Below are positions 2,266 to 20,387 of a stretch of DNA of 24,000 bases, piece by piece. The translations under genes and the position numbers were made by a program. How positions within the stretch are numbered: position 1 is the stretch's first letter; every line of letters starts with the position of its first letter. The notes beneath the pieces are model-generated. The model saw only the letters and a list, made by a program, of their open reading frames with translations. It did not search any database and was not told the origin of the DNA. The DNA lies in the NCBI GenBank assembly GCA_934590165.1, contig CAKTOO010000005.1:82431-106430 (forward strand), in the 5' to 3' direction. This stretch comes from an uncultured Dysosmobacter sp. (GTDB lineage: Bacteria > Bacillota > Clostridia > Oscillospirales > Oscillospiraceae).

Positions 2266-3417
2266 TTACCACGTAAAGTCACCGGGATGATCATACTCAT
2301 GCCAGTTCACATTCAAGGCACGGGATACGATCTCCTCCAGCTGAGCGATCCTCAGCCCAGAGGCACCGTCACACTGCGCAGAGAAGATCACATCGCTCAT
2401 CTGCATGAAGAGTTCATAGGCCGTGCAAGGACTGTCTCCATGAATTGCTACGAAATAGTCCATAGCTTCATAGGAGGCTTTCTTTGGGGCCTTGATTCTT
2501 TTCAGGACACGCATGAGTGTTGTGACGGGATAGCGGATCTCGATGTTCATAAGCTGCACTTGCTTGTCCAGTGCCTTTTCAAACTGCGCATAGACCAATC
2601 TGAGCTGTTCCTCAAAATACTGCATATCCACGCCATTCTTGTGTTCGGTGCGAATGGAGTACCCCAATGGAACAATACGGCTCTCGGCACCAACCAGAAA
2701 GATCGGATAGAGATTTGCGCCGCTCATGCCCACATCGGAGGTGGAAAAGCGCAGCGCAGGAACCATTTTCTCAGTTTGCAAGCCTTTGGCAGCAATCTCC
2801 CTATGATATGTATCGAGAAGCTTGTCTGCCTGCCCATCCAGACGCCAGATTGCTGTCGCAATGGAGTGATCGAAGTGGGCTGTCATAAAAGTGTTTCCGG
2901 GATACTCACGGTTGAGAAAGTCGCTCGTTGCCTTAAATAGAGGTAGCATCTCCATAACGGTGTAGTCTTTCGGATCGCCACCATGTACTGCCGATACCTT
3001 CTCATCTGCGATTTTGATCAGGCTGTCACCGGAGGCGACGCCCATGCAGTAGTTGAGGATCTCAGCGAATACCGTCTTGGAAACTTTGTTGAGTGCATGC
3101 CCAGAGATGCGGGCTCGCTCGAGAACTGTTTTGATCGCGCAGGAACGAACCGGATAGTCCTTACCATCCACCTTCAGCAGGAGGCTGGTATTCTCCATTG
3201 TGTCTTCGAGAATCTCAGCGGCACCATTGTGGTCATAGATCTGCATGTACAGATTCCCAAGCGTGGAGCCTCGTTCCACCGGTTCGAACTGTAGTTCTCT
3301 GGATGGAGCGGTCATCCATTTGCTGCGGGCTTTCCGGTCACTCAGGAATTGAAAAAAATCCCCAGGCTCCGTAAAGCTACGACTGAAGTTGTCCGTGAAT
3401 ACTTTGCTTTCTGTCAT
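2266..3417 (-). CDS. Hypothetical protein, possibly DUF932-like (phage/plasmid-like protein family)
   Basis: 383-aa ORF with an AAAGGTGG RBS before the ATG at 3417. The internal segment ALRFSTSDVGMSGANLYPIFLVG resembles the xNSxDGSxA core of DUF932, but the match is weak and motif-level only. The longer of two overlapping antisense ORFs was chosen. Confidence 0.6.
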   Translation of the reverse strand: MTESKVFTDNFSRSFTEPGDFFQFLSDRKARSKWMTAPSRELQFEPVERGSTLGNLYMQIYDHNGAAEILEDTMENTSLLLKVDGKDYPVRSCAIKTVLERARISGHALNKVSKTVFAEILNYCMGVASGDSLIKIADEKVSAVHGGDPKDYTVMEMLPLFKATSDFLNREYPGNTFMTAHFDHSIATAIWRLDGQADKLLDTYHREIAAKGLQTEKMVPALRFSTSDVGMSGANLYPIFLVGAESRIVPLGYSIRTEHKNGVDMQYFEEQLRLVYAQFEKALDKQVQLMNIEIRYPVTTLMRVLKRIKAPKKASYEAMDYFVAIHGDSPCTAYELFMQMSDVIFSAQCDGASGLRIAQLEEIVSRALNVNWHEYDHPGDFTW

Positions 3418-7090: not shown

Positions 7091-7441
7091 TTGATAACCA
7101 AAGTTGAGGAATTCCGGGACAAGCATACTGTCTCGGTCAACAGCAAGGGCGATATCCTTATCACAGGCTTCACCAACGCGAAAAATGAGAAGTGCTTCTG
7201 CATTATGGCAGACGGCCATCGCTATCATGAGTATGGCATCTCCACCGGCAGCCTCCTTCTCTGCCAGCGCGGCGCCGCCATCAATGACGGAGACCTCATC
7301 ATCGTGAAAGAGGACGGAGCTTTTACTATTTATCTTTATCTGAAAGACCGCAAAATCAAGGAGGATGGCGATAAGCGCATTCTCCATAACAAGTCCAAGG
7401 CCTACGCCAAAGTGATTGGCTCGTTCAACTTCTTTGAGTAA
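7091..7441 (+). CDS. UmuD'-like S24-fold protein lacking the Ser-Lys catalytic dyad
   Basis: ORF 7037..7441 trimmed to the TTG at 7091, 7 nt after AAGGAGGG. CIMADGHRYHEYGISTGSLLLCQRGAAINDGDLIIVKEDGAFTIYLY aligns by eye with UmuD [46 protein letters not shown]. In that alignment GDSM is replaced by ADGH. Confidence 0.5.
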   Translation: MITKVEEFRDKHTVSVNSKGDILITGFTNAKNEKCFCIMADGHRYHEYGISTGSLLLCQRGAAINDGDLIIVKEDGAFTIYLYLKDRKIKEDGDKRILHNKSKAYAKVIGSFNFFE

Positions 7442-7466
7442 TCAGGTCTGGCAGAAAGGACGGATC

Positions 7467-8009
7467 ATGAGCAAATTCCAAAACTACCTGAAAACATTTG
7501 ACATTACCAGTACGCTGACCGAGGAAGATATTGAAAAGACGATGGCATTGCTCCAAATCTATGGGCCCACCGTTAGACGGACAGCCGCAAGAATCGATGA
7601 ATTTGAGGAAGAGTGCTATGAGAGCCGGCGGCAATCCATCTCAGACTTCATCAATTTAGCCATCGACTATGATCGTGACACCGATCGCAAACGCATTTCG
7701 GACCGTTTGGCGGAGATGGGGCACAGCATGGAGCTGCTTTCCGTTATGGAAGAGGCATTGGTGTTAGTGAAGGACACCCCGCCGAACGGCGGCACCTACT
7801 ATAGCATCCTGCAGGCCCGCTACTTTGATGTCTACTGCACTTCCAATGAGGATGCCTTCCTGAATCTGGGGATGTCCTCGTCTACTTACTATCGTCACAT
7901 CAAGCCGGCGATTCGAGCATTTGCCGCAAACCTCTGGTGTGTTGTCATCCCTGATCTGATCATCAAGGAGCATATCCAGAATAATGGGAGTCAGGTGGGA
8001 GTCTCATGA
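7467..8009 (+). CDS. Putative transcriptional regulator with C-terminal sigma-70 region-4/ArpU-like HTH
   Basis: ORF 7416..8009 trimmed to the ATG at 7467 (AAAGGA RBS). The C-terminal LGMSSSTYYRHIKPAIRAFAANL is a typical HTH of ArpU/DUF1492-type late regulators. Motif-level call only. Confidence 0.5.
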   Translation: MSKFQNYLKTFDITSTLTEEDIEKTMALLQIYGPTVRRTAARIDEFEEECYESRRQSISDFINLAIDYDRDTDRKRISDRLAEMGHSMELLSVMEEALVLVKDTPPNGGTYYSILQARYFDVYCTSNEDAFLNLGMSSSTYYRHIKPAIRAFAANLWCVVIPDLIIKEHIQNNGSQVGVS

Positions 8010-8117
8010 GAGTCAAATGAGAGATAAAATGATGGAAAATAGAGAGGAGATTGGAAGCCAAGCGAAATTGTAGTGTAGAGAATCACCCCTTATAATGGAT
8101 TATGCTGAAGCACCTAT

Positions 8118-8152
8118 AGCCTCTCGGGGAATTTCCCCCGAGAGGCTTTTTT
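8118..8152 (+). terminator. Rho-independent terminator
   Basis: 12-bp perfect stem AGCCTCTCGGGG (8118-8129) / CCCCGAGAGGCT (8135-8146), followed by TTTTTT (8147-8152). Confidence 0.85.
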
Positions 8153-8188
8153 GATCCCCGCGTGCAACAGCCAATACTGGAACAAATT

Positions 8189-8224
8189 GCCGACCATTCT
8201 CGCATGAGAGTGGCCGGCTTTTTT
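8189..8224 (+). terminator. Second, tandem rho-independent terminator
   Basis: 13-nt arms GCCGACCATTCTC (8189-8201) / GAGAGTGGCCGGC (8206-8218) with one A.C mismatch and one U.G wobble. Followed by TTTTTT (8219-8224). Confidence 0.6.
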
Positions 8225-8332
8225 GTTGCCTTGACTGGGAGCATGATCCATGTCCGGCGCTGGCAATCGGGCTCGTGGCCCGCCTTCAAGTCGTTCGTCC
8301 GCATCCGCAAACGAAACGACTTGGAGGTAAAA

Positions 8333-8737
8333 ATGAAAACTATCAGAATCAAAGACTACTATGGTATTTATCAGGAAATTCCTGTCAGCGATGAGCTGTA
8401 TGAAGAATGGCGCGCTCTTCAGAATGAAACGCAGCGCGTCCATCGCAAAGAAGTATATCACCGTGATTGGACACCAATCGAGGATCTTTTCGAAATGCCG
8501 AAGTCTTATGAGCAGAACCCGATGGAAGATACGTTGCTGTGGGATGAGCAGGTCGCTGCGCTGTATGCAGCGATCGCACAACTTACCCCGATCCAGCAGC
8601 GCAGGATCCACATGCTGATGGAGAATATGACGATCCGTGAGATTGCCCGTCAGGAAGGGTGCCATATGAACGCAGCTCTGAAATCTGTCAACGGTGCGCT
8701 CAAAAAGCTCCACGATCTTCTGAAAGACTGGGCATAA
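8333..8737 (+). CDS. Small sigma-70 family protein (region 4 HTH), mobile-element type
   Basis: ORF 8162..8737 trimmed to the ATG at 8333, after a GGAGG RBS. LTPIQQRRIHMLMENMTIREIARQEGCHMNAALKSVNGALKKL is a sigma-70 region 4.2-like HTH. Confidence 0.65.
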   Translation: MKTIRIKDYYGIYQEIPVSDELYEEWRALQNETQRVHRKEVYHRDWTPIEDLFEMPKSYEQNPMEDTLLWDEQVAALYAAIAQLTPIQQRRIHMLMENMTIREIARQEGCHMNAALKSVNGALKKLHDLLKDWA

Positions 8738-8862
8738 ATGCCTAAAGGGAAAACATTTAGTGTAGTTGTTGTTCTATGAGAACACTATGCGTAATTACTT
8801 TTAGATGCTTCGAGTGCGACATCACACGCACTTTGTTAAACGAAATGAGGAGGTTCCAATCC

Positions 8863-9789
8863 ATGATTATCTCTGTCGATCACGGCAATAAATCGATCAA
8901 GACCCCGAACGCGCTTTTCACCTCCGGCCTGATTTCGTCCGAAGGGCTGCAAGGATTCAAAACGGACTATATCGGCTGGAACGGGCGCTACTATACGCTG
9001 ACAGAACAGCGCATTTCTTATCTGCGCGACAAAACCGAAGACGAGCGGTTCTATGTCCTGACTCTCTTCGCTATCGCCAAGGAACTGGAACGGCGCAAGG
9101 CAGCTGAAACGCTGGATCCGATTGACATCACGCTCCTGATTGGATTGCCCCCAGCGCACTATGAACAGCTCCACAGTCGCTTTGAGCAGTACTTTCTGCG
9201 GCGCCGTGAGGCCATTGACTTCGAGTACAATGGAAAATACTACTCGATTCGCATCAGCAAGGTTCTCAGCTACCCTCAGGCATTTGCGGCTGCTGTAACA
9301 CAGTACAGTACGCTCAAGACCTATTCTGTTGCCTACATCATCGACATCGGCGGCTTTACCATTGACGTGCTCAAGCTGCGGAACGGACGTCCTGACCTGG
9401 CGGTGGTCGAAAGTTTTGAAAAGGGGGTCATCACCCTCTACAACAGCATTACAAGCAAATGCAATGCGCTCTATGCCCGGATCTTGGAGGACTGCGATAT
9501 TGATGAGGTCATTCGCAATCAGCCTACTGTCCTTCCTGGTGAAGTGCAACAGCTGATTCGCAGCATGACAGGAGAGTTTCTTTCGGAGTTCTATAACTTC
9601 CTTCGTGAGCGCGGCATCGATGTAACGACCAGCAAATGCGTGTTTGCCGGTGGTGGCTCTCTTCTCCTTCGAGGAATGATCGAGAGGGCAAATAAAGTAG
9701 CATTCCCCATTTTCATCGAAGATATTCATGCCAATGCACGCGGCTATGAACTCCTCTATCAGAGTGAGGTAGCGTCGAATGGGCAGTAA
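8863..9789 (+). CDS. parM: ParM/StbA-family actin-like segregation ATPase
   Basis: ORF 8776..9789 trimmed to the ATG at 8863 (GAGGAGG RBS). Actin-fold motifs are MIISVDHGNKSIK (phosphate 1), YIIDIGGFTIDV (phosphate 2) and VFAGGGSLLL (adenosine). Confidence 0.8.
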   Translation: MIISVDHGNKSIKTPNALFTSGLISSEGLQGFKTDYIGWNGRYYTLTEQRISYLRDKTEDERFYVLTLFAIAKELERRKAAETLDPIDITLLIGLPPAHYEQLHSRFEQYFLRRREAIDFEYNGKYYSIRISKVLSYPQAFAAAVTQYSTLKTYSVAYIIDIGGFTIDVLKLRNGRPDLAVVESFEKGVITLYNSITSKCNALYARILEDCDIDEVIRNQPTVLPGEVQQLIRSMTGEFLSEFYNFLRERGIDVTTSKCVFAGGGSLLLRGMIERANKVAFPIFIEDIHANARGYELLYQSEVASNGQ

Positions 9790-10117
9790 TAGTAAGTCTC
9801 GTGTTGTGCTCCAGTTCAATGAAATGGACTTTCGACACCGGCGCGCACTCGATATTTTACGGCAACGACCACGCAGCATGTCCGAATTGGTCGTCAATGC
9901 GATCCTGCACTACACAAGCTGCCCAGAAGCGGCCAACGAGTTTGGCCGCGACTGGGTGGTGAGCATCGTCAAGGATGTCGTTCGCGAGATGGTCACAAAT
10001 GGAGAACTCCAAGCTGTATCACAACCCACGTCCCCAAAGCCGGAGAGTCCAACGCTGGCGGCTGATGATCTTGCGGATCTCGGTGGTGTCATGGGGATGT
10101 TCCGGTCGAAGGAGTAA
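9779..10117 (+). CDS. Putative ParR-like ribbon-helix-helix adaptor
   Basis: The start overlaps the parM stop (ATGGGCAGTAA). The N-terminus SRVVLQFNEMDFRHRRALDILRQRPRSMSELVVNAILHY has a beta-strand/helix/helix RHH pattern. The C-terminal tail is acidic and disordered-looking. The position matches parMR operons. Confidence 0.45.
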   Translation: MGSNSKSRVVLQFNEMDFRHRRALDILRQRPRSMSELVVNAILHYTSCPEAANEFGRDWVVSIVKDVVREMVTNGELQAVSQPTSPKPESPTLAADDLADLGGVMGMFRSKE

Positions 10118-10121
10118 GGCC

Positions 10122-10736
10122 ATGAGCAATAAGAAATTTGGATATGCTCGTGTATCCACAGCTGAGCAAAATGAGGATCGTCAGGTTCTTGAATTGCTCG
10201 AGTACGGCATTGAAGAGCGTGATATCTATGTGGACAAGCAGAGCGGCCGTAGTTTTGAGCGAACAAACTACATGTCACTACGAAATAGCATTTTGCGTAA
10301 TGGCGATATCCTGGTCGTTAAAAGCATTGATCGTTTTGGCCGTAATTACTCTGGAATTCGCACCGAGTGGGAATATCTTACCAAAACGCTTGGTGTGGAC
10401 ATCGTCGTTCTGGACACTCCCATTCTGGATACGACCCGATACAAAGATCTACTCGGTAGTGTAATCACGGATATTGTCCTCGCCGTACTATCTTTCGGCG
10501 CTCAGCTGGAAGTTGATACCAAGTCGAAGGCACAGGCGGAAGGGATTGCCGCCGCGCATCTAAAGGGTGTCAAATTTGGGCGGCCAAAGTGCTCTGTAAA
10601 GGACTGGGATATCTATTATCCCAAGTGGAAGCAAGGAGAAATCACAGCTGTCGAGTGCTATAGGCAGTTGGGCGTCAGCGCATCGACATTTTATCGGTTG
10701 GTGCATAAGTTTGAGTCGGAGGGAAAAGTACGATGA
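10122..10736 (+). CDS. Small serine recombinase (resolvase/invertase family)
   Basis: ORF 9975..10736 trimmed to the ATG at 10122. FGYARVSTAEQNEDRQ carries the catalytic Ser. VVKSIDRFGRN is present, and the C-terminal HTH is LGVSASTFYRLVHKF. Confidence 0.9.
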   Translation: MSNKKFGYARVSTAEQNEDRQVLELLEYGIEERDIYVDKQSGRSFERTNYMSLRNSILRNGDILVVKSIDRFGRNYSGIRTEWEYLTKTLGVDIVVLDTPILDTTRYKDLLGSVITDIVLAVLSFGAQLEVDTKSKAQAEGIAAAHLKGVKFGRPKCSVKDWDIYYPKWKQGEITAVECYRQLGVSASTFYRLVHKFESEGKVR

Positions 10737-11140
10737 AGCGCTGTATTATATATGCAAGAATTGGTGGACCAGCTTCGGAGGTAAATAACAGCCTTATGCA
10801 AGCACAGCTGGCCGGACTCCGTGCAGCCGCAGAAGGCCTCGGCTTAGAGGTCGTGGCAGAGCTTCCAGTTTTTGAGCATGGTAATGATGGGAACCGGCAA
10901 AGCATCAAGACGTTGGCTCGGGATAGGCGGCATGGCCTTTACGAATGTGTGCTGGTAAAGAATTTGTCACGCTTGGCCCGTGGAGAGGCCATTCTCGAAG
11001 TTGGCCGCAAATTCGCAAGTGCCGGGCTTTCGGTCTACACACCTTCCGGTCGTGCTGAACTGATTCCGCCCGTTTATGCCTTCTACTCCAGATATCACAC
11101 GGAAGGAGGTCCTGCATTTGGCTCGCGAAACCAAAAATGA
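10733..11140 (+). CDS. Degenerate resolvase N-terminal-domain paralog (catalytic Ser absent)
   Basis: ATGA start/stop overlap with the resolvase gene. CIIYARIGGPASE occupies the position of YARVSTxxQ, with Ser replaced by Gly. VLVKNLSRLARG occupies the position of vlvxxlDRlaRn. No DNA-binding domain is present. Confidence 0.5.
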   Translation: MKRCIIYARIGGPASEVNNSLMQAQLAGLRAAAEGLGLEVVAELPVFEHGNDGNRQSIKTLARDRRHGLYECVLVKNLSRLARGEAILEVGRKFASAGLSVYTPSGRAELIPPVYAFYSRYHTEGGPAFGSRNQK

Positions 11141-11309
11141 GGATCGAAAGCAAAGGATTCGTGACGCTTTCCAAGAGGGTCAAGCAGTAGAACGGATGCC
11201 AGCTCGCTATGTTGTAATATCAGAGGATATTACAGGCGATAGAGTTTTGGCAAAATTCCAACTCATTCAGTTCAAGGAGGATATTGATGTGTCAAGAACC
11301 CACACTTAA
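11076..11309 (+). CDS. Questionable ORF (possible frameshifted or truncated remnant abutting the IscB element)
   Basis: 77-aa ORF overlapping the previous CDS by 65 nt in another frame. It has no RBS and no motif. It ends exactly where the hairpin-rich noncoding region begins. Confidence 0.2.
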   Translation: MPSTPDITRKEVLHLARETKNEDRKQRIRDAFQEGQAVERMPARYVVISEDITGDRVLAKFQLIQFKEDIDVSRTHT

Positions 11310-11610
11310 ACGCAAAAGCGTTTTGAAGTGGTGCTTGTGGGAAAACTACAAGCCTGATTGACTACCCTAAGTGTTTCGAACACTACGTTACTTGAGAATG
11401 TATAGGCACCTGCGGGCGTTCGTCCGAACCCGCCGCTCTGCGGCATACGATTAAAAGCTCTGGGGGTAAGGAGCGGTGTCGTATGTAAGAAAACCTCAGG
11501 ATAACATTGGGTACGGACACCTGACCTGCGTGATTGGCTCTACCGGTCATACAGGCGCGGCTTCTATATTAGCCGCATCAAGATTATCGGAAAGAGGGCA
11601 TTGACATGCC
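11310..11610 (+). ncRNA. Candidate omegaRNA (IscB guide-RNA scaffold); 5' end and guide position not resolved
   Basis: No ORF of 60 aa or more in any frame across 11310-11563. Stems are dense: GCTTGTGG/CTACAAGC (11333-11353), AGTGTT/AACACT (11370-11384), GCGGG/CCCGC (11412-11433) and CATACGA/TCGTATG (11444-11485) enclosing GCTC/GAGC. Further stems are TGACC/GGTCA (11522-11549), GCGGCT/AGCCGC (11557-11576) and GGCAT/ATGCC spanning the iscB ATG (11597-11610). The location is where IscB omegaRNAs are encoded. Confidence 0.6.
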
Positions 11611-12901
11611 TGATAAGGTCTATGTTATCAGCCGGCTCGGACATCCGTTGATGCCCTGCTCTCCGGCAAAAGCCCGTCATCTTCTGGATGACAAGAAAGC
11701 AAAGGTTGTCAAACGGACGCCTTTCACTATCAGGCTCCTCTATGGGAGCACTAAGTATATTCAGCCGGTCATTCTCGGCGTGGATGCAGGAAGCAAGACC
11801 ATTGGTCTGTCGGCAAGTACGGTGAAGGAGGAATTGTTTGCTGCTGAGGTAATGCCACGGAATGACGTGGTGGAAAACCTCTCCACGCGAAGAGCGTTCC
11901 GCCGAGCACGCCGGAACCGTACCACACGGTATCGGGAACCTCGTTCTGATAATCGTGTGCGTAGCAATCACGAATGTTGGCTTGCACCTTCTGTGAAAGT
12001 TAAAATTCAGGAGCATATTACTTCTATCAAGAGGGTATGTACTATCCTGCCTGTCAGCAAAGTGGTCATTGAGACTGCAGAATTCGACCTTCAGCTCCTC
12101 AAAGCTATTCAGGACGGAAAGCCTATCCCAGAGGGCGAGGACTATCAGAAGGGCGAAATGTACGGTTCTTATAATGTTCGTCAGTACGTCCTCTGGAGAG
12201 ATAACTACACCTGCACCTGCTGCGGAGTCAAGGGCACGGACAAGAAGCCAGTCAAACTGCATGTCCACCATTTTGAGAGCCGCAAACACGGTGGGAATGC
12301 TCCGGACAACTACGGCACGCTCTGCGAGGATTGCCACAAGAAGTTTCACCTCGGCATCATTATCGATGAGATGCTCAAGACGCGCAAGCGCCGCTCCACG
12401 AGAGACGCCGCCTTTATGGGCATTATGCGCAAGACACTGATGCAGAGACTCAGAGCAGAGCTCTCCATCCCTGTCGCAGAGACGAAGGGCTACATCACAA
12501 AAGCAACCCGCGAGAAGCTGCTGGTACTTCCGAAGAGCCACACTAGCGATGCTCTGGCAATTGCACAGGGTAGACACGGCTTTAGTATTAAGGCGCACAC
12601 CTATGTAGAACCGGCAAACCACATCTACACGGTCCGCCCGGTACGGCATCATAACCGCCAGCTCCACAAAGCCTCTATCCTGAAGAGCGGTATCCGAAAG
12701 CGCAATCAGGCATCTAAATATGTCTTTGGTTTCCGACTCTACGATAAGGTTCTCTATCAGGGAAAAGAGTGTTTCGTGTGGGGGCGGAGAACAAGCGGAA
12801 GCTTTCTTCTTCGAACAATTGACGGTATAAAGGTCAAAGACGGTGTAAGTTGCAGAAACCTCACTCTACTTGAACGAAGCAGCAATTACCTTATTGCGTA
12901 A
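11606..12901 (+). CDS. iscB: IscB RNA-guided nuclease (OMEGA effector; split RuvC with inserted HNH, PLMP N-terminal domain)
   Basis: 431 aa with AGAGGG RBS. PLMP motif in GHPLMPC (aa 12-18). RuvC-I is ILGVDAGSKTIG (D60). The Arg-rich bridge helix is RRAFRRARRNRTTRYR (aa 95-110). RuvC-II is VVIETAEFD (E156). HNH is CTCCG...HVHHF...N...CEDCHKKFH (aa 203-248). RuvC-III is KSHTSDALAIA (H312, D315). The C-terminal segment is GFRLYDKVLYQGKECFVWGRRTSGSFLL. Confidence 0.85.
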   Translation: MPDKVYVISRLGHPLMPCSPAKARHLLDDKKAKVVKRTPFTIRLLYGSTKYIQPVILGVDAGSKTIGLSASTVKEELFAAEVMPRNDVVENLSTRRAFRRARRNRTTRYREPRSDNRVRSNHECWLAPSVKVKIQEHITSIKRVCTILPVSKVVIETAEFDLQLLKAIQDGKPIPEGEDYQKGEMYGSYNVRQYVLWRDNYTCTCCGVKGTDKKPVKLHVHHFESRKHGGNAPDNYGTLCEDCHKKFHLGIIIDEMLKTRKRRSTRDAAFMGIMRKTLMQRLRAELSIPVAETKGYITKATREKLLVLPKSHTSDALAIAQGRHGFSIKAHTYVEPANHIYTVRPVRHHNRQLHKASILKSGIRKRNQASKYVFGFRLYDKVLYQGKECFVWGRRTSGSFLLRTIDGIKVKDGVSCRNLTLLERSSNYLIA

Positions 12902-12985
12902 ACAATAGAGAAGAGGAAAACTATCGATTCCTCTCCCTACCCATAGAGGTGTGGGATTCTTATCTAAAATCCAGACAAATAAAAA

Positions 12986-13018
12986 ATGGCCTTCGGTATG
13001 TGTTGTACCGGAGGTCAT
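12986..13018 (+). terminator. Hairpin downstream of iscB (terminator and/or right-end structure)
   Basis: 13-nt arms ATGGCCTTCGGTA (12986-12998) / TACCGGAGGTCAT (13006-13018). The two G.U wobbles pair only in the plus-strand RNA. Followed by TCGTTT, a weak U-tract. Confidence 0.5.
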
Positions 13019-13124
13019 TCGTTTACGTACCATTTCAGTACGACAAATACCATAATGCTCATTTCTGATTTTCTGCCATCCCTCTATACTGTGAGAAAGT
13101 ACAGGATAGGTAGGAGAAGATCAA

Positions 13125-13457
13125 ATGAGTACGAGATTGCAAATCATGGGCAGCCGGATTCGGACTGCAAGGCAGTTCCGCCGCCTCACTGGTGAACAGC
13201 TCGCTGAGAAGATCGGTATTGCTGTAGACTCGCTTCGACACATAGAAAATGGAGTCCGATCACCAAGTTTCCAGCTCATTGAGCGCATCTCGGATATTCT
13301 AGACGTTTCACTCGACTACTTAGCTGGGAAGACGGATTCTCCTCTGGAGCATAGAGTTCGCAAGGAACTTGAAAACTCTGGACTAACGAAGGAGCAAGAA
13401 GATGCCATTGTTGAGTTGGCATTAAACTCGATCCCGATCATCAAAAAACACATTTGA
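13125..13457 (+). CDS. XRE-family HTH transcriptional regulator
   Basis: GGAG RBS. HTH is IRTARQFRRLTGEQLAEKIGIAVDSLRHIENGVRSPS. Confidence 0.85.
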   Translation: MSTRLQIMGSRIRTARQFRRLTGEQLAEKIGIAVDSLRHIENGVRSPSFQLIERISDILDVSLDYLAGKTDSPLEHRVRKELENSGLTKEQEDAIVELALNSIPIIKKHI

Positions 13458-13461
13458 GCAA

Positions 13462-13497
13462 TGCACCTGTCGATCTGGCAGGTGCAATTTTATTTTT
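13462..13497 (+). terminator. Rho-independent terminator
   Basis: Stem TGCACCTG (13462-13469) / CAGGTGCA (13479-13486), followed by ATTTTATTTTT. Confidence 0.75.
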
Positions 13498-13552
13498 CAT
13501 TCTTCCTTAATCCGACTGTTTTCGCGCTTTCTCTCATGTAATATGTACTTAC

Positions 13553-19722: not shown

Positions 19723-19799
19723 GGTCCGCTCGTCTAAATGGTTAGGACACAGCCCTTTCACGGCTGCAATGACCGGTTCGAGTCCGGCGCGGATCTCCA
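19723..19799 (+). tRNA. tRNA-Glu (anticodon UUC)
   Basis: Hand-folded. Acceptor GGTCCGC/GCGGATC with one G.U. D region is TCGTCTAAATGGTTAGGACA. Anticodon stem CAGCC/GGCTG with loop CTTTCAC. T-loop is TTCGAGT. CCA is encoded. There is an A.C mismatch at the top of the T-stem. Confidence 0.8.
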
Positions 19800-19805
19800 A
19801 AATAA

Positions 19806-19880
19806 TGGGATATGGCCAAGCGGCTAAGGCACCGGCCTTTGACGCCGGCACCGTTGGTTCGAATCCAACTATCCCAACCA
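19806..19880 (+). tRNA. tRNA-Gln (anticodon UUG)
   Basis: Acceptor TGGGATA/TATCCCA, with U1-A72 typical of bacterial tRNA-Gln. D region is GCCAAGCGGCTAAGGC. Anticodon stem CCGGC/GCCGG with loop CTTTGAC. T arm is GTTGG-TTCGAAT-CCAAC. CCA is encoded. Confidence 0.9.
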
Positions 19881-19881
19881 T

Positions 19882-19958
19882 GATACGGTACTCAAGAGGT
19901 TGAAGAGGACAGCCTGCAAAGCTGTTAATCGTCGGTTCGAATCCGACCCGTATCTCCA
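19882..19958 (+). tRNA. tRNA-Cys (anticodon GCA)
   Basis: Acceptor GATACGG/CCGTATC. Anticodon stem ACAGC/GCTGT with loop CTGCAAA. T arm is GTCGG-TTCGAAT-CCGAC. Discriminator is U and CCA is encoded. The D arm CTC-AAGAGGTTGAA-GAG is unusually Ser/Leu-like. Confidence 0.8.
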
Positions 19959-19962
19959 ATAT

Positions 19963-20039
19963 GGTGCCTTCGTCTAATTGGTCAGGACGCAAGCCTCTCA
20001 AGCTTGTAATGCTGGGTTCGAGTCCCGCAGGCATCACCA
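19963..20039 (+). tRNA. tRNA-Glu (anticodon CUC)
   Basis: Acceptor GGTGCCT/AGGCATC with one G.U. Anticodon stem CAAGC/GCTTG with loop CTCTCAA. T-loop is TTCGAGT. CCA is encoded. There is a C.C mismatch at the top of the T-stem. Confidence 0.8.
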
Positions 20040-20048
20040 TCATCATAT

Positions 20049-20123
20049 AGGGGTATAGCTTAACTGGTAGAGCAGCGGTCTCCAAAACCGCCCGTGGGTG
20101 TTCAAGTCGCCCTATCCCTGCCA
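20049..20123 (+). tRNA. tRNA-Trp (anticodon CCA)
   Basis: Acceptor AGGGGTA/TATCCCT. D region is TAGCTTAACTGGTAGAGCA. Anticodon stem GCGGT/ACCGC with loop CTCCAAA. T arm is GGGTG-TTCAAGT-CGCCC. Discriminator is G and CCA is encoded. Confidence 0.9.
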
Positions 20124-20129
20124 TTTTAT

Positions 20130-20205
20130 TGGGGTGTCGCCAAGCGGTCAAGGCACCGGTCTCTGACACCGGCATTTGTTGGTTCGAATCCAACCACCCC
20201 AGCCA
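20130..20205 (+). tRNA. tRNA-Gln (anticodon CUG)
   Basis: Acceptor TGGGGTG/CACCCCA. Anticodon stem CCGGT/ACCGG with loop CTCTGAC. T arm is GTTGG-TTCGAAT-CCAAC. CCA is encoded. Confidence 0.9.
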
Positions 20206-20210
20206 TACTT

Positions 20211-20296
20211 GGAGAGTGAACCCAGAAGGTCTGGGGACCGCCCGCTAAGCGGATCGCACTGCATGGTGTCAGATTCGAGTTCTGCGCTCTCCGCCA
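20211..20296 (+). tRNA. Non-canonical long-variable-arm tRNA, anticodon GCU (Ser-type), with an apparent 8/4 acceptor/T-stem geometry
   Basis: Hand-folded. The 8-bp acceptor is GGAGAGTG/CGCTCTCC with no U8, followed by an AA linker. D stem is CCCAG(A)/(T)CTGGG, 5-6 bp. Anticodon stem is (A)CCGC/GCGG(A) with loop CCGCTAA, which puts C at position 33. The variable arm is about 16 nt with GCAC/GTGT pairing. The 4-bp T stem is CAGA/TCTG with loop TTCGAGT. Discriminator is G and CCA is encoded. Confidence 0.6.
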
Positions 20297-20299
20297 TAT

Positions 20300-20387
20300 G
20301 GGTCAGTACGCGTAGTTGGCGAGCGCAGCGGTCTGTAAAACCGTGACATAAGAAACATCGTTGGTTCAATTCCAACCTGGCCCACCA
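20300..20387 (+). tRNA. tRNA-Tyr (anticodon GUA), long variable region
   Basis: Acceptor GGGTCAG/CTGGCCC with one U.G. Anticodon stem GCGGT/ACCGT with loop CTGTAAA. The 15-nt variable region GACATAAGAAACATC has little self-pairing. T arm is GTTGG-TTCAATT-CCAAC. CCA is encoded. Confidence 0.75.

Follow-up and report, generated by a model that had tools for sequence, protein, structure and literature searches.

The window, i.e. the whole stretch of 24,000 nucleotides analysed here, carries an iscB gene on its forward strand (11606-12901). It encodes a protein of 431 aa with a PLMP motif, a RuvC domain (RRXRR) and an HNH domain. Pfam recognized RRXRR (1.8e-54, residues 5-183) and HNH (1e-5), the N-terminus contains HPLMPC, and the IscB chains of the PDB matched at E = 4.6e-35 to 3.6e-33, the latter being the value for OgeuIscB. 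The catalytic motifs were aligned (GVDAG/GIDPG, VVIETAEF/VVLELNRF, HVHHF...CEDCHKKFH/HYHHV...CEEHHRLVH and PKSHTSDA/PKDHYLDA); they hold the counterparts of the catalytic residues of RuvC-I, -II, -III and HNH in OgeuIscB. The 431-aa IscB is common in human gut metagenomes and its cluster at 90% identity has 1,366 members. The identical protein was always found in the same context. The locus is present, for instance, in the Hadza gut contig ERZ4559772 NODE_2, and the relative L001 is represented by Hominicoprocola fusiformis CLA-AA-H269.

Directly 5' of iscB, on the same strand, lies a hairpin-rich stretch which a sequence-only reading had proposed as a candidate IscB ωRNA. As stated there, 11310-11563 contains no ORF of at least 60 aa; the longest have 55, 46 and 42 aa. 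Rfam matched 11291-11525 to the HEARO family (RF02033) with 101.3 bits, compared with a gathering score of 83 (E = 4.2e-20). The match covers the full length of the model (positions 1-211 of 211). The RNA family has been shown experimentally to be the guide RNA of IscB (Meers et al. 2023, bioRxiv 10.1101/2023.03.14.532601; Kato et al. 2022, PMC9640706). The scaffold extends from 11291 to about 11577, and the same order, ωRNA then iscB, was seen in about 50 related loci. Because the HEARO score exceeds the gathering score, the structure covaries and an iscB ORF follows directly downstream, the stretch is, judged by sequence, the ωRNA (HEARO) of a small transposon-borne IscB nuclease, and the proposal was borne out. 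The kind of RNA is already known; the concept is not new, as a known RNA family was re-identified beside its known partner protein. HEARO RNA and the IscB ωRNA of OMEGA systems reportedly go back to Weinberg et al. in 2010 and Altae-Tran et al. in 2021. The structured RNA begins 19 nt upstream of 11310, the start given earlier, within the tail of an ORF at 11076-11309.

The genes upstream are co-oriented with the ωRNA, and no sigma-70-like promoter was found just upstream of it on the + strand. Together this fits the orientation bias described by Meers et al. (2023, bioRxiv 10.1101/2023.03.14.532601). Nearby, a recombinase gene is reduced to a remnant by an internal deletion. The left flank had no match among viral contigs, megablast of 10700-13500 against GenBank phages had none either, and a synteny probe for viral contigs, the HTH protein encoded downstream, returned distant matches only and was set aside.

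Fold and covariation of the ωRNA

The minimum free energy of the fold is -116.4 kcal/mol vs -95.2 +/- 5.1 kcal/mol in shuffled sequences (z = -4.15; 0 of 100 shuffles were as good). For covariation, 25 non-redundant homologous loci were aligned with MAFFT and pairs were counted explicitly, with slid and shuffled controls. In these homologues 87.3% of the cells pair, compared with 35-40% in the slid controls. Compensatory changes were present in 49 of the 75 pairs. None of 500 shuffles reached these values. G.U cells exceeded A.C cells by 133 to 44; therefore, the structure is that of an RNA read from the + strand. Every helix of the ωRNA forms in the window copy, and RNAalifold found helices 4 and 5 unguided. 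Folding and compensatory changes at homologous loci, which the sequence-only reading had named as checks, thus both upheld its claim.

The scaffold is predicted to be ordered into guide-adaptor domain, nexus stem, central stem, pseudoknot hairpin and pseudoknot, stem-loop 3, linker and two terminal hairpins. From the guide to the terminal hairpins this is the order of elements in the OgeuIscB ωRNA (PDB 7XHT, 7UTN; PMC9640706), although the scaffold is longer here (about 286 nt vs 206 nt). All parts are on the + strand. The guide-adaptor domain (11291-11362), delimited by the Rfam alignment and the pair counts, is three-way and has 72 nt, whereas that of the OgeuIscB ωRNA is a single hairpin of 43 nt. 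It is closed by GUCAA (11291-95) and UUGAC (11358-62; helix 1), which pair in 100% of the cells. Hairpin a (helix 2, 11303-07 with 11326-30) has an inner AAACGC/GCGUUU stem; 93% of its cells pair and four of five pairs covary. Compared with the HEARO model, hairpin a carries an insertion of 19 nt. Hairpin b (helix 3, GCUUGUGG/CUACAAGC, 11333-53) pairs in 66% of the cells, a low figure that in this indel-rich region of the MAFFT alignment is probably caused by misaligned indels.

The nexus-stem domain (11365-11511) is closed by CCC (11365-67) and GGG (11509-11; helix 4, 98.7% of the cells pair). It encloses a stem-loop at 11370-84 (helix 5, AGUGU/ACACU, 93.5% of the cells), which is extra with respect to the OgeuIscB ωRNA, and a central stem of 10 bp (helix 6, 11387-96 with 11495-505; 87% of the cells, six of ten pairs covary). 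The nexus pseudoknot hairpin (11406-11441) consists of helix 7 (GCA/UGC, 11406-08 with 11439-41, 100% of the cells) and helix 8 (CUGCGGG/CCCGCCG, 11410-16 with 11429-35; 93% of the cells, six of seven pairs covary). Its loop GUCCG (11422-26) pairs with the 3' strand CGGAC (11514-11518) to form the pseudoknot (helix 9), the counterpart of the nexus pseudoknot stem of OgeuIscB (PMC9640706). It pairs in 100% of the cells of 25 sequences, and three of five pairs covary (GUCCG:CGGAC, AUCCG:CGGAU, GCCCA:UGGGU, CACCU:AGGUG and others). Stem-loop 3 (11443-11486) has an outer stem GCAUACGA/UCGUAUGU and an inner stem GCUCU/GGAGC; in helix 10 seven of eight pairs covary, and helix 11 pairs in 85% of the cells.

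A single-stranded linker follows the 3' strand of the pseudoknot and leads to two hairpins beyond the 3' end of the Rfam model, the counterparts of terminal hairpins 1 and 2 of the OgeuIscB ωRNA. That RF02033 lacks such downstream elements has been remarked before (Meers et al. 2023, bioRxiv 10.1101/2023.03.14.532601). Terminal hairpin 1 (11525-11555, from the minimum free energy fold; CCUG/CAGG and GUGAUUGG/CCGGUCAU) pairs 11525-28 with 11552-55 and 11530-37 with 11543-50, and is longer than in the OgeuIscB ωRNA. All 25 homologues have a hairpin at this position, variable in length and sequence, with compensatory changes in locus L002. Terminal hairpin 2 (helix 12, GCGGCU/AGCCGC, 11557-11576) pairs in 88% of the cells, and four of six pairs covary. 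Both terminal hairpins were found in all homologues. In front of the ORF are a ribosome-binding site (GAAAGAGGG, 11590-98) and, just 3' of it, a hairpin GGCAU/AUGCC (helix 13, 11597-11610), which may sequester the iscB start codon. It pairs in 84% of the cells, a figure to be read with the unreliable alignment at 11597-11610 and the coding constraint on AUGCC in mind; GGCAT is invariant in 11 close loci.

All complementary arms listed by the sequence-only reading were located where it had put them. GCTTGTGG/CTACAAGC (11333-11353) is hairpin b, AGTGTT/AACACT (11370-11384) is helix 5, CATACGA/TCGTATG with the enclosed GCTC/GAGC (11444-11485) lies in stem-loop 3, GCGGCT/AGCCGC is terminal hairpin 2 and GGCAT/ATGCC the start-codon hairpin. 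For others the letters are right and the pairing is not. GCGGG/CCCGC (11412-11433) is present, yet its proposed extension TTC/GAA is not a conserved pairing and competes with the pseudoknot; GCCGC/GCGGC (11432-11444) is incompatible with two covarying helices; and TGACC/GGTCA (11522-11549) is in the wrong register, as the conserved terminal hairpin 1 pairs otherwise. For these three, the covarying alternatives were adopted as the functional pairings instead. ACCTGCG does occur twice (11408 and 11524), but it is not conserved in relatives; as a direct repeat it is probably due to chance and was rejected as a meaningful feature. The closing stem GUCAA/UUGAC, the nexus stem, the 10-bp central stem and the pseudoknot had been missed.

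Boundaries of the element, TAM and guide

The whole non-autonomous IscB element, as delimited by homology edges, comprises 1,688 bp (11291-12978, + strand). Between independent insertions, 11291 (GTCAA) is the exact limit of conservation: 29 distinct, unrelated 5' flanks all adjoin GTCAA, or ATCAA in a few loci, and the alignments with L002 and L017 begin at 11288-11290. The alignment of related iscB loci, also suggested in the sequence-only reading, thus gave a sharp edge. At the other side the flanks of the relatives diverge just 5' of an ATGAA-type motif. Accordingly, the right edge of the window copy would lie at 12978/12979, as locus L001, at the same insertion site, has ATGAA at that position. 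ATGAA follows the right end in about 21 of 31 independent insertions; the remainder includes one-base variants, and ATGAC, ATGAT and ATGGA occur in relatives. The window itself has ATAAA at the TAM position (12979-12983, + strand). Among the about 31 insertions ATAAA is confined to the window lineage, and it is present in all nine readable copies with an identical protein. The TAM of GstIscB is TTCAT, the reverse complement of ATGAA (Meers et al. 2023, bioRxiv 10.1101/2023.03.14.532601). Target duplication is absent: the flanks GATGT and ATAAA differ, and a homologous unoccupied site was identified.

About 70 nt past the stop codon are conserved in relatives and form the distal end with putative subterminal hairpins (12902-12978), the left end in the TnpA convention. 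The sequence-only reading had placed the left end beside the ωRNA; in that convention it is the right end (Meers et al. 2023, bioRxiv 10.1101/2023.03.14.532601). In relatives the top-strand DNA of the distal end folds into a nested hairpin with an outer GGCAA/TTGCC and an inner CCC..GGG stem. In the window the outer stem is degenerate; an inner stem of 4 bp and a different hairpin are left (z = -0.86). A Y1_Tnp (TnpA) domain was absent among the 25 window ORFs of at least 110 aa scanned with Pfam. This was to be expected because most iscB elements are non-autonomous, an iscB gene with tnpA in its vicinity being the exception (about 1.5%; Meers et al. 2023, bioRxiv 10.1101/2023.03.14.532601). 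With ATAAA as TAM, a degenerate outer stem and no TnpA among the scanned ORFs, homing of the window copy may be impaired.

Because conservation begins exactly at GTCAA, the guide is predicted to be the flank just outside the element, AGGAGGATATTGATGT, of about 16 nt (11275-11290, + strand). A flank-derived 5' guide and conservation that stops at the transposon end are shared with HEARO RNAs, as are the position upstream of iscB on the same strand and the helices. For IscB a guide of 16-17 nt is sufficient (Kato et al. 2022, PMC9640706). AGGAGGATATTGATGT occurs once in the window. At the host junction interrupted by the element, 11275-11290 also supplies C-terminal codons and the Shine-Dalgarno region. 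The sequence-only reading had recognized the ωRNA, yet its guide lay one structural domain too far downstream: 11295-11365 belongs to the guide-adaptor domain, whose sequence and fold are shared between loci, and the Rfam alignment, conservation and pairing counts across homologues ruled this stretch out as guide. Its idea that the guide predicts the homing target holds with 11275-11290, for which related contigs contain an unoccupied target plus TAM. Unoccupied homologous sites, i.e. target and ATGAA with one mismatch to the guide, came from a single viral contig and from 46 stretches of metagenomes, mostly human gut. The common unoccupied allele is AGGAGGACATTGATGT followed by ATGAA, with the mismatch at position -9; site L058 reads ...GGAGGACATCGATTT|ATGAA. 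The exact empty site with the window's own right flank (…GATGT|ATGAA|AAATGGCC) was absent among 88 metagenome matches, in which the homologous junctions carry a different downstream gene.

A probable guide RNA for the adjoining IscB and its alternatives

We are highly confident that the region is best explained as the ωRNA of a non-autonomous IS200/IS605-type IscB element (11291-12978), which would guide the element's own IscB. By analogy with published work on other IscBs, the following steps may be envisaged. The ωRNA is probably transcribed by read-through from the co-oriented upstream genes. Between its predicted ends, about 16 nt of flank (11275-11290) would serve as 5' guide, joined to a scaffold that runs from 11291 to about 11577 (about 286 nt). 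To this scaffold the 431-aa IscB, product of the gene directly downstream, would bind. The resulting RNP would then cleave guide-matching DNA with an ATGAA-like TAM directly after it, be it the site emptied by excision or an allele at a homologous site that is unoccupied. Repair by recombination could afterwards restore the element or copy it. The closest parallel is the ISGst IscB element of Geobacillus stearothermophilus (Meers et al. 2023): it is a non-autonomous IS605-type element with the ωRNA at RE and the TAM adjoining the other end, the inferred ATGAA mirrors its TTCAT, targeting of the donor joint would follow the same logic and the element is co-directional with the upstream gene. 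Different are the host, here gut Oscillospiraceae or Clostridia and viral contigs, the ATAAA of the window copy, and a 24-kb window without TnpA among its scanned ORFs. OgeuIscB, a homologous protein (496 aa vs 431 aa here), has NWRRNA as TAM, compared with the inferred ATGAA-like motif.

Could the structure serve something other than a guide RNA? It might be a cis-acting mRNA leader (5' UTR) that controls only the translation of iscB. The region runs unbroken into the iscB ORF, no separate terminator was found between terminal hairpin 2 and the ATG, and the conserved GGCAU/AUGCC hairpin is able to cover the start codon. However, the match above the curated threshold is to a family of experimentally proven IscB guide RNAs, the pseudoknot, linker and terminal hairpins, which contact the protein in the OgeuIscB structure (PMC9640706), are conserved, and conservation ends sharply at the transposon end instead of at a promoter. 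We consider a mere leader very unlikely. Even less credible is that the arms are DNA hairpins of the transposon end which TnpA recognizes on single-stranded DNA. Such subterminal hairpins are present at IS200/IS605 ends, and the ωRNA region coincides with the transposon right end over its first tens of nucleotides (Meers et al. 2023, bioRxiv 10.1101/2023.03.14.532601). Yet the covarying structure of about 290 nt is far longer than a transposon end and includes a long-range pseudoknot, and the excess of G.U over A.C cells fits a + strand RNA, neither DNA nor the opposite strand.

A different question is whether the window copy still moves. It may be a fixed, immobile relic: RNA and nuclease would be intact, but the copy could neither leave its own site nor home back to it. 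In that case the RNP would lack a cognate donor joint and act at most on unoccupied alleles in related elements. We regard this as a distinct possibility that falls somewhat short of probable. ATAAA, private to this lineage, is fixed in every readable identical copy, and single-base changes in the TAM abolish cleavage by GstIscB (Meers et al. 2023, bioRxiv 10.1101/2023.03.14.532601); the present IscB may, however, have a TAM specificity of its own, and relatives tolerate one-base variants. The lost outer stem, the deleted recombinase remnant next door and the invariable context of the identical protein point the same way. No TnpA was seen among the scanned window ORFs; another part of the host genome could, however, supply one. 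Against a relic, the full-length IscB with its catalytic motifs and the complete set of ωRNA helices suggests that selection has continued or that the element arrived recently. Rather unlikely is a further reading, in which the IscB-ωRNA module has been immobilised or domesticated and acts mainly against, or homes into, competing relatives of the host element instead of preserving itself where it sits. The window's own TAM and TnpA-side end would then have decayed while its RNA and nuclease, the same in many gut samples, stayed intact. The guide matches the unoccupied junction of recombinase and next gene in related mobile elements with one non-seed mismatch.

For the guide-RNA reading, the practical yield consists of boundaries at nucleotide level (guide 11275-11290, scaffold 11291 to about 11577, element end 12978) together with an inferred ATGAA-type TAM and a natural target for a compact IscB of 431 aa. 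Possibly this may help screens of small IscBs for genome editing; the value is modest. As a smaller possibility, the GGCAU/AUGCC hairpin at the start codon might couple IscB translation to folding or processing of the ωRNA.

The ωRNA and its covarying fold

The sequence-only reading had proposed an ωRNA at 11310-11620, a noncoding segment dense in hairpins in front of iscB. All complementary arms which it named were present in this segment at the positions given, and an ORF of 60 aa or more was absent within 11310-11563 (longest 55, 46 and 42 aa). Folded as RNA, 11291-11620 yielded -116.4 kcal/mol compared to -95.2 ± 5.1 kcal/mol for dinucleotide-preserving shuffles (z = -4.15); none of 100 shuffles folded as well. 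The hairpin-dense segment is real and beyond chance. The Rfam model RF02033 (HEARO) matched at full length (11291-11525) with 101.3 bits, above its gathering score of 83 (E = 4e-20). HEARO is the RNA now named IscB ωRNA (Meers et al., 2023; bioRxiv 10.1101/2023.03.14.532601). With this match over the gathering score and an IscB ORF next downstream the ωRNA call was borne out. By the family's own threshold the RNA is a member of a curated family and is already known.

The structure was examined in 25 non-redundant ωRNAs. Unguided RNAalifold returned 26 pairs, 20 with compensatory changes. The full structure tested comprised the Rfam consensus, the pseudoknot, a second terminal hairpin and a start-codon hairpin. 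It passed the covariation check: standard pairs were present in 87.3% of 1,815 cells (alignment-column pair by sequence), and 35-40% of cells paired when the 3' partners were slid by 1-3 columns. Both sides changed in 49 of 75 pairs, and none of 500 shuffles attained any pairing or covariation measure. The pseudoknot, GUCCG at 11422-26 with CGGAC at 11514-18, was paired in 100% of cells, its variants including AUCCG:CGGAU, GCCCA:UGGGU, AUCCU:AGGAU and CACCU:AGGUG. G.U cells outnumbered A.C cells (133 vs 44). This assigned the structure to + strand RNA rather than to DNA or the opposite strand. Some of the originally suggested pairings had to be abandoned. TGACC/GGTCA is in another register than terminal hairpin 1 and was without support in the related locus L002; TTC/GAA and GCCGC/GCGGC clash with covarying helices.

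The model RF02033 does not contain the downstream structural elements (Meers et al., 2023). In the OgeuIscB structure a single-stranded linker comes after the pseudoknot and leads to terminal hairpins 1 and 2 (Kato et al., 2022; PMC9640706), and the window ωRNA has the same 3' layout. Terminal hairpin 1 is located at 11525-55 (11525-28 : 11552-55 and 11530-37 : 11543-50). A hairpin was found at this position in 25/25 homologues, varying in sequence and length from a 5-bp GNRA or UUCG hairpin up to a 14-bp stem. Terminal hairpin 2 at 11557-76 (GCGGCU/AGCCGC) is conserved and covarying (GUGGCU/AGCCAC, ACAGCU/AGCUGU, GCAGCU/AGCUGC). As both terminal hairpins are present, the scaffold extends from 11291 to about 11577. 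At about 286 nt it is longer than that of OgeuIscB (206 nt), in part due to a 72-nt three-way guide-adaptor domain with a 19-nt insertion compared to the Rfam model, in part to an added stem-loop at 11370-84 and to the long terminal hairpin 1.

At the iscB start a hairpin can form between GGCAU (11597-601) and AUGCC (11606-10). GGCAT was invariant in 11 close loci; analogous xCAU...AUGx pairings occurred in more distant clades, with 84% of cells paired in a region where the alignment is unreliable. The AUGCC arm is also under coding constraint. Possibly the hairpin limits IscB translation as a translational attenuator.

Scaffold start, guide and unoccupied sites

Related loci were retrieved by IscB protein: 15 were in gut clostridial genomes, mostly of Oscillospiraceae, and 42 in viral contigs. 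With a profile of the upstream region, the ωRNA was detected ahead of iscB in about 50 of these loci. The conserved block opened with GTCAA in every locus (ATCAA in a few), and the sequence 5' of it was unrelated between loci (29 distinct flanks). Therefore, the scaffold starts at 11291, 19 nt further upstream than the 11310 assumed initially and within the last codons of ORF 11076-11309. Nucleotide homology of the window with the loci L002 and L017 begins at 11290 and 11288, respectively, in agreement with the first Rfam model position, 11291. In IscB systems the 16-17 nt immediately preceding the scaffold make up the guide (Kato et al., 2022). Thus, the predicted guide is AGGAGGATATTGATGT at about 11275-11290. 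The guide window initially considered (11295-11365) belongs to the scaffold, where it makes up the guide-adaptor domain.

Synteny of the viral contig L058 with the window covers positions 7187-11206 and 13084-13528 of the latter; L058 is devoid of IscB. Its upstream gene codes for a 383-aa serine recombinase with the C-terminus ...FKEDIDL*, and its unoccupied junction reads AAGGAGGACATCGATTT, followed by ATGAA and TGC. Joining the window flanks generated AAGGAGGATATTGATGT followed by AT(G/A)AA; this restored the same reading frame, with a stop codon in the same position. Scanning metagenomes for GGAGGAYATYGATKTATGAA gave 88 stretches, mostly from human gut, 46 of which had the same junction as L058. 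Most of the 46 carried AGGAGGACATTGATGT plus ATGAA, which differs from the guide of the window by a single mismatch (position -9), i.e. outside of the guide seed from -8 to -1 (Kato et al., 2022). The expectation that the guide predicts the homing target held for 11275-11290, as seen in L058 and the 46 metagenome junctions. The predicted target is the stop/start junction at which, in a family of gut mobile elements, a recombinase gene meets the gene that follows. An empty site bearing the right flank of the window itself was not found among the 88 metagenome stretches.

Several related loci were peculiar. L001 (Hominicoprocola fusiformis contig JAJEPY010000140.1) shares 94% identity with the window from 11467 on, and its positions 1-1586, 5' of this part, are all unrelated to the window. 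It has an intact iscB and is without the guide and the 5' 176 nt of the scaffold; a rearrangement may lie behind this, or a chimeric assembly. L003, which shares the insertion site of the window element, has a 9-nt deletion at about 1036 (TACGTTACT), aligned to window 11385-11393. With most of the 5' strand of its central stem gone, the L003 ωRNA is probably defective. In several viral contigs, two IscB-ωRNA elements with differing flanks lie 2-3.5 kb apart (L035, 2137 and 4268; L042, 906 and 4275; L040; L024).

IscB, the distal end and the TAM

The iscB gene (11606-12901, 431 aa) matched Pfam RRXRR (1.8e-54) and HNH (1e-5) and has an N-terminal HPLMPC motif. The protein matched solved IscB chains (OgeuIscB 7XHT, E = 3.6e-33), against which the RuvC-I, -II, -III and HNH motifs were aligned and intact. 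It is a typical IscB. The exact protein is already in public collections from 29 contigs; its 90%-identity cluster has 1,366 members and is unnamed.

Conservation ran about 70 nt beyond the iscB stop codon, and the flanks of about 31 independent insertions diverged directly before a short motif: ATGAA in about 21, ATGAC in 4, ATGAT in 3, ATGGA in 2, and AAGAA and TTGAA in 1 each. Therefore, the window element spans 11291-12978 (1,688 bp), and the TAM position next to the element end is 12979-83. The measured TAM of GstIscB is TTCAT, given on the 5' side of the transposon left end, and the ωRNA abuts the right end (Meers et al., 2023). Reverse-complemented, TTCAT reads ATGAA, which fits with an ωRNA at the right end. 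A Shine-Dalgarno-like GGAG or GAGG was present 4-18 nt before the insertion point in 10 of the 29 distinct flanks (loci L002-L055; background 8.3%, binomial p = 7e-5). As the TAM ATGAA is itself a start codon plus AA, many of these elements sit between the ribosome-binding site of a gene and its ATG.

In the window the TAM position reads ATAAA, as it does in 9/9 readable copies encoding the identical IscB; L001, at the same insertion site, has ATGAA (about 3096-3100). Through this one G-to-A change, excision by TnpA as well as self-targeting by IscB could be blocked. In relatives, the top-strand DNA folds into a nested hairpin beside the TAM (outer GGCAA/TTGCC, inner CCC..GGG); in the window the outer stem is lost. 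A Y1 transposase was absent among the 25 window ORFs scanned; iscB elements normally have none nearby (Meers et al., 2023). The TAM reading ATAAA, the degenerate hairpin at the distal end, the decay of the neighbouring gene and the occurrence in a single genomic context make it possible, though somewhat less likely than not, that this copy is a fixed relic.

Directly past the TAM lies an inverted repeat at 12986-13020 (GGCCTTCGGTA...TACCGGAGGTC), with an A-run in front of it and a weak T-rich tail behind. It resembles a bidirectional terminator that would serve the operon upstream; in L058 the hairpin at the corresponding position is a different one.

Proposed mechanism and genomic neighbourhood

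By analogy with published IscB systems, read-through from co-oriented upstream genes would supply an RNA with a flank-derived guide. A sigma-70-like site was not found directly upstream of the ωRNA, and an orientation bias is reported for such elements (Meers et al., 2023). IscB would bind the scaffold and cut an empty, TAM-flanked site matching the guide, after which recombination would either re-establish the element or copy it.

The element is placed exactly at the stop codon of ORF 11076-11309 (77 aa), an internally deleted remnant of the 383-aa serine recombinase which is intact in L058 (3649-5098). About 290 aa are gone between ...ERMPAR and ...ISEDITGD, and a 135-aa Resolvase-N ORF (10733-11140) overlaps the remnant in a different frame. 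Seven tRNA genes are arrayed on the + strand (19723-20384, Rfam). Together with ParM-like, UmuC/UmuD-like, IrrE/XRE and two resolvase genes in the neighbourhood, they suggest a phage, a plasmid or an integrated mobile element. The identical locus is present on a 439,855-bp gut metagenome contig.
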